NCBI GenBank assembly: GCA_964581315.1
Contig: CAZONG010000001.1
Span: forward strand, 1 to 27,583
Length of the DNA: 27,583 nucleotides
Reading direction: 5' to 3'
Origin: Candidatus Woesearchaeota archaeon
GTDB lineage: Archaea; Nanobdellota; Nanobdellia; Pacearchaeales; GW2011-AR1
Shown here: one piece after another, positions 7,389 through 11,537 of the stretch
How positions within the stretch are numbered: position 1 is the stretch's first letter
Layout of the letters: each line of letters opens with the position of its first letter
Program-made: the position numbers and the translations under genes
The notes under the pieces: model-generated
The model's database searches: none
What the model was told of the DNA's origin: nothing
Seen by the model: only the letters and a program-made list of their open reading frames with translations

Positions 7389-7640
7389 TTAATCAAACCA
7401 GCCCAATTTTTGATTTCTTGGAAGTTGTTTTATTTCGTATTCGCATTTGCATGCGTCTGACTTATTTTTGCATTCTTTTGCCTTGAGAAGTTCTTTAAAA
7501 CCTTTTTTAGCGACGTATTTACTTCCCTTTCCTGACGCATGAGCTTTCATTCTTTTATCAATCTCATTTGTAACTCCTGTATAAAATGAGCCGTCAGAAC
7601 ATTCTAAAATATAAACAAACCATGGTTTAGATTTTTCCAT
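7389..7640 (-). CDS. GIY-YIG nuclease family protein (UPF0213-like, stand-alone)
   Basis: WFVYILECSDGSFYTGVTNEIDKRMKAHASGKGSKY...CEYEIKQL. Confidence 0.92.
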   Translation of the reverse strand: MEKSKPWFVYILECSDGSFYTGVTNEIDKRMKAHASGKGSKYVAKKGFKELLKAKECKNKSDACKCEYEIKQLPRNQKLGWFD

Positions 7641-7702: not shown

Positions 7703-7773
7703 CGAGGACAGGGGGAATCGAACCCCCTCCGAGCGGTCTGGAGCCGCTAATTCTACCTTTAAACTATGTCCCC
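7703..7773 (-). tRNA. tRNA-Trp (CCA), 71 nt, no intron, 3' CCA not encoded
   Basis: Cloverleaf: GGGGACA/TGTCCTC acceptor, AGCGG-CT CCA GA-CCGCT anticodon arm, GGGGG-TTCGATT-CCCCC T arm, discriminator G. Confidence 0.95.
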
Positions 7774-7836: not shown

Positions 7837-8844
7837 ATGGGCCTTGAAAATTTACTAAAACAAAAAGGGCTTGTTTTACAAAGCCCGAATGTAGAGGATT
7901 TGTTAGCAAGAGCCAATTCTAAAAAAGAACCTTTGAAAATATTTTATGGTGAAACTTATGACAATTATGGAAATACTGTTGATAGCATGAAATATTATTT
8001 TTTTGTCTCTGAAATCTCTAAAACCTTGGAAAAAAATGGAATAAAAACAGACCCCATGATTTTGGTTGCAGATACTGCAGCATGTAGAAATGTTTCTTTT
8101 GATTTAGAAAGAAAATATATGGGTCTGGGAGACGAAAGAGTTGAGTTTATTGAAAAAATTAATGAAGAATATGGGTTAGGACTTAGAATCGTGAGGATGA
8201 GTGATTACATAAATTCAAAAGAATTTATTGATGAAAGAAAAAGAATTATTGAAATTTGTAAACCAGATTTAAAATTAATGGAATCTATTGAAAAAACAGT
8301 TCCAGAATCTAAAATTGAAGAAGAGAGAAAAAAAGGATTCATGTATTCTTTTGATGAAATTACAACAATTATGGATTTGGATATAAAAGTTGGTCCTCCA
8401 AGAGAAGATTTATATGACAATATTGCAAGAGAACTTGCAAAAAGGGAAGGAAAACTTCCCCTCATTTCAATATTTTTAACTCCAACTTTTCCACTTGGGA
8501 AAAATTGGGCTTACTTTTTTTCACAAGAAGGAATTGAAGACCATGGAATAACTGCATATAAGGCTGGAAGTAAAAGACTTCAAGACTTTAGAATTCTTCC
8601 GGGAAAAACAACTTCTGAAGAATCAAAAGATTTAATTTATAATTCTTTTTTAAGTTTGGATGATTCTCTTCCAAACCCGGTTTTAGATGTTGGCATTATT
8701 TCTCAAATGGCTGAGAGAAATCTTAAAAAAGATTTTTCTGAAATTGACCTATATGACAAATTTTATTCTGGAAAATTAAATCAAAGTGAACTTAAAGAAG
8801 AAGTTTATAACAAATTAAATAAATTTATTTTGGAGAAATTTTAA
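7837..8844 (+). CDS. Class Ic aminoacyl-tRNA-synthetase-like protein (TyrRS-like, HIGH and KMSKS degenerate)
   Basis: Colinear similarity, from memory, to archaeal TyrRS: KIFYG, ILVADTAACRN, DIKVGPPRE..NIAREL, NPVLD, and DKFYSGKLNQSELKEEVYNKLNKFI; no HxGH or KMSxS. Confidence 0.7.
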   Translation: MGLENLLKQKGLVLQSPNVEDLLARANSKKEPLKIFYGETYDNYGNTVDSMKYYFFVSEISKTLEKNGIKTDPMILVADTAACRNVSFDLERKYMGLGDERVEFIEKINEEYGLGLRIVRMSDYINSKEFIDERKRIIEICKPDLKLMESIEKTVPESKIEEERKKGFMYSFDEITTIMDLDIKVGPPREDLYDNIARELAKREGKLPLISIFLTPTFPLGKNWAYFFSQEGIEDHGITAYKAGSKRLQDFRILPGKTTSEESKDLIYNSFLSLDDSLPNPVLDVGIISQMAERNLKKDFSEIDLYDKFYSGKLNQSELKEEVYNKLNKFILEKF

Positions 8845-8845
8845 G

Positions 8846-10012
8846 ATGGAAAATAATTTAGATTTAGAAAAATTGGTTAATTCAGATTACCAAAATAAAT
8901 TAGAGTTAAAAGAAAAAGAATTAAAATATTACCCAGATAAAATGAAGGAATTTGGTTTAAAATCTATGGAGAGATTCTTGAAATATTGTCCCGATCCAAG
9001 TAAATATATGAATCTTGGAATCACTTTTGCACATAAGGATCTTGAAAAAGTTGCAGCAGCAATTGCAGAGAATAAACCTTGGGCAGTTGTTTCTGGATTG
9101 AATCCATCTGGACCATTACATTTAGGACATAAAGCAATTTTTGATGAACTTTTGTGGATGCAACAACATGGGGCAGATGTTTACATTCCATTAACAAATG
9201 ATGAGAGTTATACCGTCGGAAAAACCAAAAGTTTAGCTGAGTCAAGAAAAATTGCTTACGAGCAAGTAATTCCAAGTATTATTGCAATGGGCTTTGATTC
9301 CAAAAAAACCCACATATTTGTAGATTCAGATTATCCAGATATTTATAATGTTGCAATGGACCTTTCAAACAAAATAACTCTTAACAAAGCTTTTGGGGTT
9401 TTTGGGTTCGACAAAAAAGAAGAAGGAGAAAATCCGGGAACAATGTTTTACAGGTCAGCAGTCCAAGTGGCCCAAATACTTCTTCCACAATATGAAGAAT
9501 TTGGAGGACCAAAACCAACAATAATTCCTGTTGGAATTGACCAACACCCTTACATACTTCTTGCAAGAGATATTGCAGAAAAAAAAGGTTTTATTCCTCC
9601 TGCTGAGATTGTGACTAAATTTTTATGGGGCATTGATGGAAAAGGAAAAATGTCTGCAAGTAGACCAGAATCTGCGATTTTTTTAAATGATGATATTAAA
9701 TCTGTTATAAAAAAATTAAAATCTTCTTACACTGGTGGAAGCCCAACTGCAAAATTTCAAAAAGAACATGGGGGAATTCCAGAAATTTGTCCTATTTGGT
9801 CTTTAAGAACTTATAATTTTGAGTTGGATAACAATGTTGCAACATCCTGTTCTTCTGGGGAAGTTTTGTGCGGAGAATGTAAAAAAAAGGGAATAGACTC
9901 TACTGTTAAATATTTAGAAGACTTCCAATCTAAATTTGAAGATGCAAAAAAAAGAGTAGATGAATTTATTCTTAAAACCCCCATAAGGTCTTTTTTGAAA
10001 TATAAAATTTAA
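8846..10012 (+). CDS. trpS: Tryptophan--tRNA ligase, archaeal type
   Basis: SGLNPSGPLHLGH (HIGH), PVGIDQHPY, GKMSAS (KMSKS), YTGG...GGIPEIC and CGECKK in the anticodon domain. Confidence 0.9.
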   Translation: MENNLDLEKLVNSDYQNKLELKEKELKYYPDKMKEFGLKSMERFLKYCPDPSKYMNLGITFAHKDLEKVAAAIAENKPWAVVSGLNPSGPLHLGHKAIFDELLWMQQHGADVYIPLTNDESYTVGKTKSLAESRKIAYEQVIPSIIAMGFDSKKTHIFVDSDYPDIYNVAMDLSNKITLNKAFGVFGFDKKEEGENPGTMFYRSAVQVAQILLPQYEEFGGPKPTIIPVGIDQHPYILLARDIAEKKGFIPPAEIVTKFLWGIDGKGKMSASRPESAIFLNDDIKSVIKKLKSSYTGGSPTAKFQKEHGGIPEICPIWSLRTYNFELDNNVATSCSSGEVLCGECKKKGIDSTVKYLEDFQSKFEDAKKRVDEFILKTPIRSFLKYKI

Positions 10013-10016
10013 TTTT

Positions 10017-10523
10017 TTATAGATTATTCTCCAAATTTTTTCTTGCTTTTTTTGGAGCAGAATCTATTTCGAATAATTTTCTAAGCCCTTCCATATATAA
10101 TCCGCAAGTTGGTCCAATTAGGGGGGAGACGAGGGTTAAAATTTCAACACCGTCCTTAACTTTTTCGAAGTCAATTCTAAACTCTCCTTTTGACAGATTA
10201 GATGTTAAACTTCCCACGCTAAGAACTGTTGCATAAAGTGGGACTTGGAAAGTATCAAAGGCCAATAATTCTACCCCATACTTTCTTTTTTTTGAACTTT
10301 TATCTGTTGTTTTTGTTTTTTTGTATAAAAAATTTCTCCATTTACCATAAAAAGTAGCTGTTGGAAAGTTAATTGTTCCTCCATATATCCTTGAAGCAAT
10401 AATTCCTATTCCTCTTAGCCCAGAAGCGTAATCTGTCGCAATTCCCGTAAGAAAGGAGTATGTAAAAAGCCCCAAAGTATCTGAAAAACCCTCTTTCAAG
10501 TCCACTTTTTTGATTTTTTCCAT
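10017..10523 (-). CDS. L-alanine exporter AlaE-like membrane protein
   Basis: DTLGLFTY...SR...YGKWRNFL and LAFDTFQVPLYATVL resemble AlaE/YgaW. The start is moved to ATG 10523 because the longer ORF runs into tRNA-Asp; a TTTATAAA element lies upstream. Confidence 0.65.
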   Translation of the reverse strand: MEKIKKVDLKEGFSDTLGLFTYSFLTGIATDYASGLRGIGIIASRIYGGTINFPTATFYGKWRNFLYKKTKTTDKSSKKRKYGVELLAFDTFQVPLYATVLSVGSLTSNLSKGEFRIDFEKVKDGVEILTLVSPLIGPTCGLYMEGLRKLFEIDSAPKKARKNLENNL

Positions 10524-10573
10524 GGAAAAATTACAAAGATAGTATTTATAAATTTGAAGTTTCAGAAGTAGAA

Positions 10574-10645
10574 CGCCCACACCGGGAGTCGAACCCGGGT
10601 TTCCAGCGCGACAGGCTAGTGTCATAACCGTTAGACCATGTGAGC
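10574..10645 (-). tRNA. tRNA-Asp (GTC), 72 nt
   Basis: GCTCACA/TGTGGGC acceptor, CTAGC-CT GTC GC-GCTGG anticodon arm, CCGGG-TTCGACT-CCCGG T arm, G73. Confidence 0.95.
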
Positions 10646-10710
10646 ACGTAAGTAGTCCTTCATATCAATTTTTATTTTTAAACCTTGTGATGGTTGAGAA
10701 ATTTGTTAAT

Positions 10711-11085
10711 TTATTCTTTTTTCTTAAAGCCTAAACAAATTGAATTTACGCAGTATCTCTTTCCCGTTTTTGTTGGACCATCATTGAAAAGGTGACCTAA
10801 ATGAGCTCCGCAATTTTTACAGAGAACTTCAGTCCTTACCGTTCCATGAGATAAATCCGTTTTTAATTCAACATTTTTAGCGTTGTCAAAACTTGGCCAA
10901 CCAGTTCCAGAATCAAACTTTGCGTCTGAACTAAAAAGTTCGGCTCCACAATTTTTACACGTATAACTTCCTTTTTCCTTATTCTCAAGGAGTTTTCCTG
11001 TAAAAGCTCTTTCTGTTCCTTTTTCAAATAAAACTTGTTTCTTCTCCTTCGTTAAATTTTTATTTATTTCTTTAATTTTTTCCAT
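10711..11085 (-). CDS. msrB: Peptide-methionine (R)-S-oxide reductase
   Basis: YTCKNCG...[11 protein letters not shown]...[16 protein letters not shown]...RYCVNS. Start placed at 11085 (TAATG overlap with the msrA stop). Confidence 0.97.
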
Positions 11086-11537
11086 TAATAACAAACCATC
11101 CCTGTTTTTTTAACATAATCTTGATGATAATCTTCAGCTTTGTAAAATTCTTTAGCTGGGAGAATTTCAGTTACAACTTTTTTGCCGATTTTCTTTTCAA
11201 CTTCTTTTTTACTTTTTTCAGCGAGTTTCTTTTGATTTTCGTCTGTGTAAAAGATAACTGAACGATCTTGGCTTCCAACATCAGGACCTTGCCGATTTAG
11301 GGTAGTCGGATTGTGTTTTTCCCAGAAAATTTTTAATAAATCCGAATAACTAACTTTCTTTTCATCATAAATTAACTTCACAACTTCTGCGTGTCCAGTT
11401 TTTCCTGAACAAACTTCTTTGTAATTTGCTTCTTTTTCTCCACCCATATAACCTACTTGGGTTTTTACATTAGAAATTTGAGAAAACAAATACTGCGGTT
11501 TCCAAAAACACCCCATTCCAAAATATGCTTCTTTCAC
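11085..11537 (-). CDS. msrA: Peptide-methionine (S)-S-oxide reductase
   Basis: [35 protein letters not shown]. Confidence 0.97.

Follow-up and report, generated by a model that had tools for sequence, protein, structure and literature searches.

The stretch of DNA considered here (the window, 27,583 nucleotides (nt) at its whole length) comes from a Candidatus Woesearchaeota archaeon (GenBank assembly GCA_964581315.1, contig CAZONG010000001.1). It carries, side by side, a tRNA-Trp gene, an open reading frame (ORF) referred to as ORF1, and a gene for a tryptophanyl-tRNA synthetase (TrpRS) termed TrpRS-A2. According to structural modelling, the 335-amino-acid (aa) product of ORF1 is a full-length paralogue derived from tyrosyl-tRNA synthetase (TyrRS), with the C-terminal domain included, and it is predicted to work as a bound partner of TrpRS-A2. 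We favour, tentatively and short of calling it probable, the reading that ORF1 is an ATP-independent subunit, which would bind the tryptophanyl-adenosine end made by TrpRS-A2 and pass the aminoacyl group on.

ORF1 in the window is a new member of the family that was published under this name by Mukai, Reynolds, Crnkovic and Soll in 2017 (PMC5370408). Mukai et al. reported that ORF1 always lies beside a TrpRS-A gene and co-occurs with a cassette tRNA-Trp in DPANN archaea and in bacteria of the candidate phyla radiation (CPR), besides a canonical TrpRS; the bacterial operon has the order tRNA-Trp(A73)-ORF1-TrpRS-A1, and its ORF1 and TrpRS-A1 contain no Trp residues (PMC5370408). The fold was left unassigned in that study, with a weak match to CysRS and a Rossmann fold described as "missing", and since the Rossmann fold was lacking from the prediction, a cyclo(Trp-Trp)-synthase-like role was set aside there. 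The function was left open, the options being binding to the TrpRS-A homodimer or formation of a pseudo-dimer (PMC5370408). The locus in the window matches the published cassette in that ORF1 and TrpRS-A2 lie 1 nt apart, TrpRS-A2 is extra to the canonical TrpRS, a tRNA-Trp gene is adjacent, and the four-Cys motif is present. What is added here is the TyrRS fold, the adjacency of ORF1 and TrpRS-A in 43 of 43 loci together with fused forms, a complex model and an opposite discriminator rule. In short, the present description differs from that of 2017 in the complete archaeal TyrRS fold of the model, the predicted non-canonical docking, the fused forms, and the G73 of archaeal cassette tRNAs, whereas Mukai et al. 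speak of A73 tRNAs in archaea (PMC5370408). No later literature naming both TrpRS-A and ORF1 was found, and TyrRS, TrpRS and the anticodon-binding domain all go unmentioned in a 2026 review of aminoacyl-tRNA-dependent enzymes.

Fold and active site of ORF1

The ORF1 family was represented by an alignment of 61 diverse sequences, which reaches down to ~20% identity and in which column identity averages 24%. The AlphaFold2 model based on this alignment has a predicted local distance difference test score (pLDDT) of 96.9 and a predicted template modelling score (pTM) of 0.94. The best 50 Protein Data Bank (PDB) matches listed by Foldseek are all full-length archaeal or eukaryal TyrRS, and the AlphaFold DB clusters that match the model are mainly TyrRS as well. 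A VIA comparison of the model with TyrRS structures gave Z scores of 22.5-25.1 and a root-mean-square deviation of ~3 Å, with 270-302 aligned residues spanning positions 1-335. At the profile level, hhalign matched ORF1 to the genome's own TyrRS (probability 94.8%, E 5e-8, 230 columns) and gave no match to the adjacent TrpRS-A, while M. jannaschii TyrRS was found among PDB sequences at E 7e-4. Archaeal and eukaryal TyrRS, such as those of A. fulgidus (2CYB), N. equitans (7FG6) and M. jannaschii (1J1U), have the whole fold in common with ORF1 (Z ~25, 270-300 residues) and share with it the alpha-amino-binding Asp and Tyr and the region of the G-G-x-E-Q block. ORF1 differs from them by an identity of only ~15%, by having no PF00579 match, by the replacement of the HIGH and KMSKS motifs and of the tyrosine-OH binders, and by its acidity.

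Searches of Pfam, NCBIfam and, with the single sequence, the PDB returned zero matches for ORF1. A match to OrgC at E 0.2 was regarded as noise, the name "NurA" carried by relatives in AlphaFold DB and the Atlas is an automatic and unsupported label, and weak profile matches in the tail (P0224 and P0233) are acyl-carrier repeats unrelated to ORF1.

Nine columns of the family alignment are invariant (D42, D79, Y170, G186, E190, D194, G237, Y241 and R252, 61/61 each) and eight are nearly so (G38 and K184, 60/61; Y193, 59/61; D49, 57/61; K52, K242 and S245, 54/61; T40, 57 Thr and 3 Ser). E174 is Glu in 51 relatives, Ala in 7 and Gln in 3, and N43 is variable. As nearly all of the invariant and near-invariant columns fall on substrate- or ATP-site positions of TyrRS, the site is under selection, and the pattern indicates that ORF1 is a ligand-binding or catalytic protein and not a decayed copy. 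Among 52 ORF1 copies derived from genomes, the same residue set is essentially invariant, except that 9 copies, which all belong to a single clade of CPR bacteria, have Ala for E174.

The hhalign alignment places F36 of ORF1 on Y32 of M. jannaschii TyrRS, G38 on G34, E190 on Q173, and D79 on the Asp of the "AD" motif, which holds the substrate's alpha-amino group in TyrRS. In the profile alignment to the same enzyme, Y170 falls on Y151, E174 on Q155 and T177 on D158. All binders of the alpha-amino group are retained (D79, Y170, E174 and E190), and those of the tyrosine OH (Y32 and D158 in M. jannaschii) are exchanged for F36, which is hydrophobic family-wide, and T177. The pocket is lined by smaller or hydrophobic residues, and invariant acidic and basic residues stand at the expected nucleotide position. 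The HIGH motif of TyrRS (H-x-G-H) is replaced by K52-Y-Y-F, and KMSSS by K242-A-G-S-K.

ORF1 has an isoelectric point of 5.1 (family median 6.05), as against 9.0 for the genome's real TyrRS and 9.2 for its TrpRS. An earlier note on this DNA had held that the protein retains an anticodon-binding domain. The domain is indeed present as a fold, residues 1-335 aligning with TyrRS, but it is acidic, with a net charge of -5 and a surface on which no basic residue is conserved.

A shorter relative of ORF1, mostly ~286-299 aa, occurs in ~7 of 301 sampled genomes. It was seen at loci L012 (1207-1962, minus strand), L014 (1444-2307, plus strand) and L018 (1309-2436, minus strand; 376 aa), and it retains Y-x-x-x-E and K-x-G-P-x-x-E-x-x-Y-D but has neither T40 nor D42. 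In two of these three loci (L012 and L018) it lies directly upstream of an Asp/Glu-type racemase gene.

The partner synthetase and the cassette tRNA

TrpRS-A2 is of the archaeal type. It keeps HLGH and KMSxS and also has G-x-D-Q, and for this reason it should be able to make adenylate. The solved structures closest to it are the TrpRS of A. pernix and P. horikoshii, and its identity to the genome's canonical TrpRS is 34%. The association of this enzyme with ORF1 was followed in 43 loci (the present one and 42 others) from metagenome-assembled genomes of DPANN archaea and CPR bacteria, which were located with an alignment closer than that of the 61 sequences. In all 43, ORF1 adjoins or is fused with TrpRS-A, frequently with a 4-nt overlap. 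In four loci (L031, L033, L034 and L036) the two are separated by a gene for an M28 peptidase, and in L041 TrpRS-A is convergent to ORF1. In two Micrarchaeota genomes, ORF1 and TrpRS-A form single ORFs of 698 aa (L048, 7956-10052) and 731 aa (L061, 7956-10151), with all of the invariant ORF1 residues kept; a further locus, L062, shows the L061 fusion region in pieces. Many archaeal loci have a second, more distant pair, consisting of a TrpRS-like protein of ~460 aa and an ORF1-like protein of ~325 aa with the same invariant residues.

A model of the ORF1:TrpRS-A2 complex reached an interface score (ipSAE) of 0.82, whereas none of three controls scored above 0.00. The mark applied to this score is one that 58 of the 80 solved complexes attain, as do 2 of the 110 mismatched pairs, a calibration that is only roughly valid here as custom alignments were used. 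In the model, residues 223-231 and 271-278 of ORF1, that is, an aromatic loop and the start of the C-terminal domain, contact residues 43-49 and 67-75 of TrpRS-A2. ORF1 is thus predicted to dock on the N-terminal extension of its partner and not on the connective polypeptide 1 (CP1) dimer surface. On the TrpRS-A side the interface is moderately conserved, with R43, Y47, P49, E67, I73 and A74 kept in the TrpRS-A family. The ORF1 stretch ~216-237 aligns poorly to TyrRS, hhalign giving no confident counterpart, and its aromatic character is kept family-wide.

The docking bears on one of the options raised in 2017, namely that ORF1 and TrpRS-A form a pseudo-dimer of the Leishmania type through the classical class Ic interface, in which the sole active site would be that of TrpRS-A and the anticodon would be read by ORF1's C-terminal domain. 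The double-length TyrRS of Leishmania major, which Larson and co-workers are said to have described in 2011 as a pseudo-dimer, is among the structural matches of ORF1 (3P0J, Z 23.6). It likewise pairs an intact with a motif-less class Ic module, and the single chains of Micrarchaeota show that ORF1 and TrpRS-A can be fused in nature. Unlike in the Leishmania enzyme, however, the two halves come from different families, one TyrRS-like and one TrpRS-like, and the predicted contact (223-231 and 271-278 against 43-75) lies off the classical dimer interface. TrpRS-A has a complete C-terminal domain of its own with the four-Cys motif, the corresponding domain of ORF1 is acidic and has no conserved basic residues, and a dead subunit would not retain 17 active-site columns. 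The complex model favours ORF1 decorating TrpRS-A, and we consider the pseudo-dimer, although proposed by Mukai et al. (PMC5370408), very unlikely.

The third part of the cassette is the tRNA-Trp gene, which 18 of the 43 loci have directly upstream of ORF1. In tRNA-Trp, the main identity element that is specific to a domain is the discriminator base. Archaeal cassette tRNAs have G73 in 5 of 5 cases, and the other tRNA-Trp has A73 in all three archaeal genomes where it was found, a sample that is small and partly of related genomes. The mirror image is seen in bacteria, where cassette tRNAs have A73 (13/13) and the other tRNA-Trp has G73 in 4 of the 4 genomes checked. Housekeeping tRNA-Trp genes were located by pattern searches, as BLAST with a canonical tRNA-Trp gave only other tRNAs. 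Since the discriminator serves as a domain-specific identity element, the cassette tRNA would present the host enzyme with the "wrong" type in the genomes compared, and the mirror-image rule suggests naturally insulated TrpRS/tRNA-Trp pairs. The same role of the discriminator was a premise of Mukai et al. 2017 (PMC5370408). One cassette tRNA-Trp (L029, 7882-7952, minus strand) has the T-loop TTAAATT for TTCGATT, so that the usual C56 is replaced.

The cassette appears to be accessory, given its rare occurrence: of the 301 species genomes that sampled the phylum, 3 gave strong ORF1 matches, and the 13 from the same family gave none. The present 596-kb genome additionally encodes a normal TyrRS (contig C2), two canonical-type TrpRS genes and a second tRNA-Trp, and other carrier genomes likewise keep canonical TyrRS and TrpRS. 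With canonical copies present in this and other carriers, ORF1 is ruled out as the organism's genuine TyrRS or TrpRS. The two canonical-type TrpRS genes (L003 1303-2415 and L004 1294-2415, on contigs C9 and C13) show 65% identity to each other; where one reads G-K-M-S-S-S, the C13 copy reads D-N-V-M-S-S-S, with loss of the Lys. They could be real paralogues or reflect a strain mixture in the bin, for which the contamination estimate is 1.7%.

Possible reactions of ORF1

The earlier note had pointed to two motifs, G38-E-T40-Y-D42-N43 and Y170-S-F-D-E174, which recall those of cyclodipeptide synthases (CDPSs), and both are present in the translation as described. Its caution that such matches are short is justified: a G.[ST]..N pattern followed by Y...E 100-160 residues further on occurs in 5 of 333 genome ORFs of at least 200 aa. 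As bare patterns the motifs are at chance level, and their weight derives from position and conservation.

CDPSs are single Rossmann-fold domains of ~220-300 aa without a tRNA anticodon-binding domain, and a basic patch on their helix alpha4 binds tRNA. Those known (AlbC 3OQV, Rv2275 and YvmC; PF16715) share with ORF1 the descent from class Ic synthetases, the loss of the HIGH histidines, a hydrophobic aminoacyl pocket, the same placement of Gly, Tyr and, in most cases, Glu, and a hydroxyl at Gly+2. In the structural comparison of Sauguet et al. (PMC3105412), G35, Y178 and E182 of AlbC superimpose on G34, Y151 and Q155 of M. jannaschii TyrRS. The profile alignments bring G38, Y170 and E174 of ORF1 onto the same three positions, so that the mapping put forward in the earlier note is correct, as is its remark that TyrRS has Gln at the position of the Glu. 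S37 of AlbC, which lies in the loop that follows the strand, acts as the nucleophile and becomes acylated, and the E182A variant is inactive (PMC3105412).

It is important to note that the counterpart of S37 is ambiguous in register. By counting from the Gly, and by the end of the strand (33-39 in the model, with T40 opening the loop), T40 corresponds to S37. In the profile alignment, on the other hand, E39-T40 form a two-residue insertion, Y41-D42 lie on F-E of TyrRS, and D42 takes the position of AlbC S37 and M. jannaschii E36, a position that the two share if G-V-S-P of AlbC is laid on G-F-E-P of TyrRS. With T40 in an insertion, its equivalence to S37 depends on the counting from Gly alone. 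For other CDPS residues, no clear counterpart of AlbC P184 was seen in the 61 relatives, in which E174+2 is Thr or Ala and not Pro. The caveat that Y202 of AlbC has no equivalent holds as well: E190+2, corresponding to L200, is variable, and the invariant Y193 is one residue further on, out of register. The conservation that had been asked of the motif residues is borne out for T40 and Y170, fails for E174 in the bacterial clade with Ala, and does not extend to N43, the last residue of the GxSxxN-like motif.

The strictest version of this idea is that the tryptophanyl group of Trp-tRNA is transferred to T40, forming a covalent ester; attack by a second aminoacyl-tRNA would follow, with release of a cyclodipeptide, for example cyclo(Trp-Trp). 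ORF1 would then be a full-length relative of CDPSs or an intermediate on the way to them. In addition to the matching Gly, Tyr and Glu and the hydroxyl at Gly+2 (60 of 61 relatives), which opens the loop after beta1 as S37 does in AlbC, there are weak PF16715 matches in 3 of the 61 relatives (best E 0.0026) and PF00579 matches in none. AlbC (E 6e-3) and BtCDPS appear in the profile search of PDB sequences within E 0.006-0.035, and CDPS-labelled clusters are among the nearest by language-model features, which is a lead only. The cassette provides a dedicated synthetase and tRNA, and genes for dipeptide processing lie near some loci (MR/MLE epimerase, M28, M15 and S66). These, however, are limited to particular lineages and to 3-7 of the 43 loci. 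ORF1 itself gives no PF16715 match at E up to 1, and the genome none at E up to 10 (the Pfam gathering threshold is 27 bits). Unlike CDPSs, it is a two-domain protein of full TyrRS length, has Thr for Ser, has Ala for Glu in a clade where the AlbC precedent would predict inactivity, and is the obligate partner of a synthetase. The helix that matches the basic alpha4 (residues 88-112) has a net charge of -4, and D49, K52, K242, S245 and R252 persist at the HIGH and KMSKS positions, where CDPS chemistry has no need of them. ORF1 is therefore not a member of the CDPS family, as it fails on architecture, Pfam score and charge, and the strict version is unlikely; it may nevertheless work in a CDPS-related way.

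More broadly, the earlier note had proposed a Thr-nucleophile transferase that depends on aminoacyl-tRNA. The near-invariant hydroxyl at Gly+2 and the dedicated TrpRS and tRNA-Trp speak for it, and the tie to these two makes an aminoacyl-tRNA substrate plausible; the ambiguous register of T40, the acidity and the E174A clade speak against it. A more specific form of the proposal, which we regard as improbable, would see the cassette as a natural mobile three-part orthogonal system, in which ORF1 retains its C-terminal domain, is docked on its own synthetase and uses the insulated Trp-tRNA for non-ribosomal acyl transfer of the CDPS type.

The reading that ORF1 is an ATP-independent subunit of TrpRS-A2 takes in several of these points, and it is the most economical one in view of the retained alpha-amino binders, the lost tyrosine-OH binders, the charges at the nucleotide site, the obligate synthetase and the private tRNA. 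In the mechanism proposed, ORF1, TrpRS-A2 and their own tRNA-Trp would make up a mobile three-part cassette; ORF1 would dock on the N-terminal extension of TrpRS-A2 via loop 223-231 and the start of the C-terminal domain; it would bind Trp-A76 of the cassette tRNA or Trp-AMP, the product of TrpRS-A2; and it would hand the aminoacyl group on without ATP, with T40 and D42 as the candidate catalytic pair. Several observations weigh against this proposal. Direct tRNA binding by ORF1 is doubtful, judging from its acidity and from the charge of -5 on its C-terminal domain, and it is unusual for an internal Thr to accept an acyl group. One bacterial clade dispenses with E174. The complex model is a prediction with ~35 contacts, and in the broad family the ORF1 side of the interface is less conserved (0.29) than the average (0.40). 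Finally, the bacterial operon, with a trp repressor, a bacterial TrpRS and Trp-free proteins, points to Trp charging under scarcity and not to a new reaction (Mukai 2017, PMC5370408).

That operon is also the starting point of a rival account, in which ORF1 is a non-catalytic accessory or sensor that binds free Trp or stabilises TrpRS-A and so tunes back-up or starvation charging of Trp for translation. It would explain why the protein is acidic and why its pocket keeps the amino-group binders, as a sensor would need. Genes beside the cassette, namely type II chorismate mutase (9 of the 43 loci), class I/II aminotransferase (7) and Asp/Glu racemase (7), would fit aromatic or amino-acid salvage. 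What such a role does not need is the set of invariant residues at the nucleotide site (D42, D49, K52, K184, D194, K242, S245 and R252). Furthermore, the archaeal proteins do contain Trp, and the consistently opposite discriminator suggests separate Trp-tRNA pools, which a simple back-up would not require. We consider this account possible but somewhat unlikely.

The same residues could instead mean that ORF1 is a nucleotide-dependent ligase with unorthodox motifs, which activates a second substrate with K52 standing in for the first His and K242-A-G-S for KMSKS. At the sites of HIGH and KMSKS there are invariant residues (D49, K52, Y241, K242, S245 and R252), and in this sense these sites are not degenerate. 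Both HIGH histidines are lost, however, and we know of no class I enzyme that works with replacements of this kind, so we give the ligase hardly any credence.

Synthetases with bound partners are known elsewhere, for example TrpRS II of D. radiodurans with nitric-oxide synthase and the insect SLIMP with mitochondrial SerRS (PMC9437257). As proposed for ORF1, an extra synthetase copy is held in a complex and the partner changes or uses the aminoacyl product. These partners are unrelated to ORF1, and neither system carries its own discriminator-swapped tRNA.

Features, neighbouring genes and significance

The positions of the features discussed above are collected in Table 1.

Table 1. Features of the ORF1 cassette; positions refer to the window unless a contig or locus is given
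Feature	Position	Strand	Basis or remark
Cassette tRNA-Trp(CCA), 71 nt	7703..7773	-	ARAGORN; Rfam RF00005 58.4 bits; cloverleaf; G1-C72, G73, CCA not encoded; divergent, 63 nt from ORF1
ORF1, predicted TyrRS-fold protein without HIGH histidines	7837..8844 (translation of 7837-8841)	+	AlphaFold2 model and TyrRS structures, residues 1-335
G38-E39-T40-Y41-D42-N43, end of strand beta1 and start of loop	7948..7965	+	DSSP strand 33-39, loop 40-47; G38, T40 and D42 near-invariant or invariant, N43 variable
T47-V-D49-S-M-K52-Y-Y54, HIGH replacement, no His	7975..7998	+	hhalign against the genome's own TyrRS; column counts; D49 and K52 conserved
D79, invariant Asp of "AD" motif	8071..8073	+	Alignment to TyrRS; conservation
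Y170-S-F-D-E174, equivalent to M. jannaschii TyrRS Y151...Q155 and AlbC Y178...E182	8344..8358	+	HMMER alignment to 2zp1; PMC3105412; conservation
D182-I-K184-V-G186-P-P-R-E190-D-L-Y193-D194, top-conserved block	8380..8418	+	Aligns with TyrRS D-V-A-x-G-G-M-E-Q; column counts
Residues 223-231, aromatic cluster (W224, Y226, F227, F228), predicted TrpRS-A2 contact	8503..8529	+	Interface list of complex model
G237-I-T-A-Y241-K242-A-G-S245-K...R252, degenerate KMSKS-like loop	8545..8592	+	Alignments; column counts; G237, Y241 and R252 invariant
Residues 271-278, predicted TrpRS-A2 contact together with 223-231	8647-8670	+	Complex model
TrpRS-A2, 388 aa, ATG 1 nt past ORF1 stop	8846..10012	+	PF00579 9e-38
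TrpRS-A2 residues 43-75, N-terminal extension before Rossmann fold, predicted ORF1 docking site	8972..9070	+	Complex model
TrpRS-A2 HLGH, intact	9119-9130	+	Family invariants
TrpRS-A2 KMSAS	9647-9661	+	Family invariants
TrpRS-A2 C315-x19-C335-x6-C342-x2-C345, putative 4Fe-4S motif	9788-9880	+	Aligned to the same Cys of A. pernix and P. horikoshii TrpRS
Second tRNA-Trp of the genome, A73	Contig C21 8326-8400 (L065 77-151)		Housekeeping tRNA of the discriminator comparison
Further discriminator comparison sites	L088 1471-1541; L086 1469-1542; L102, L103, L110, L115		

Besides the aromatic and amino-acid genes counted above, recurrent neighbours in the 43 loci are MR/MLE enolase-superfamily genes (4), the M28 gene between ORF1 and TrpRS-A (4) and M15 D-Ala-D-Ala dipeptidase (3); no gene of the set occurs in every locus. 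The idea that D-amino-acid or dipeptidase neighbours define the function was dropped, each being present in only 3-9 of the 43 loci. One archaeal genome (G294, L021 6800-15489) has six such genes in a row, three for ORF1 and three for TrpRS-A or a TrpRS-A-like protein. Genes for an octopine-dehydrogenase-like protein and an M28 peptidase are interspersed among them, and a radical-SAM gene and an S66 LD-carboxypeptidase come after the row.

In the window, a gene for an AlaE-like L-alanine exporter (PF06610, 5.6e-13; 10020-10523, minus strand) lies just downstream of the cassette, and a gene of this kind is also found beside the triple cassette of G294 (L021 6067-6585). The longest ORF of the AlaE-like gene in the window (10017-10625) overlaps a tRNA-Asp gene (10573-10646), and an internal Met is probably the true start. 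On the other side, an 83-aa stand-alone GIY-YIG protein (PF01541, 3.4e-16) is encoded at 7392-7640 on the minus strand and adjoins the cassette tRNA-Trp. An ordinary pair of methionine-sulfoxide reductases, MsrB (SelR) and MsrA (PMSR), is encoded at 10714-11537 on the minus strand.

ORF1 is among the few widespread families with a synthetase fold that have a maintained active site and an unassigned function and are packaged with their own synthetase and tRNA. If ORF1 only stabilises a back-up TrpRS, the finding is modest. If it does consume Trp-tRNA, it would represent a new class of aminoacyl-tRNA-dependent enzyme and would bear on the origin of CDPSs from TyrRS-like ancestors. The insulated TrpRS/tRNA-Trp pairs suggested by the discriminator rule are, in addition, of practical interest for genetic-code expansion.

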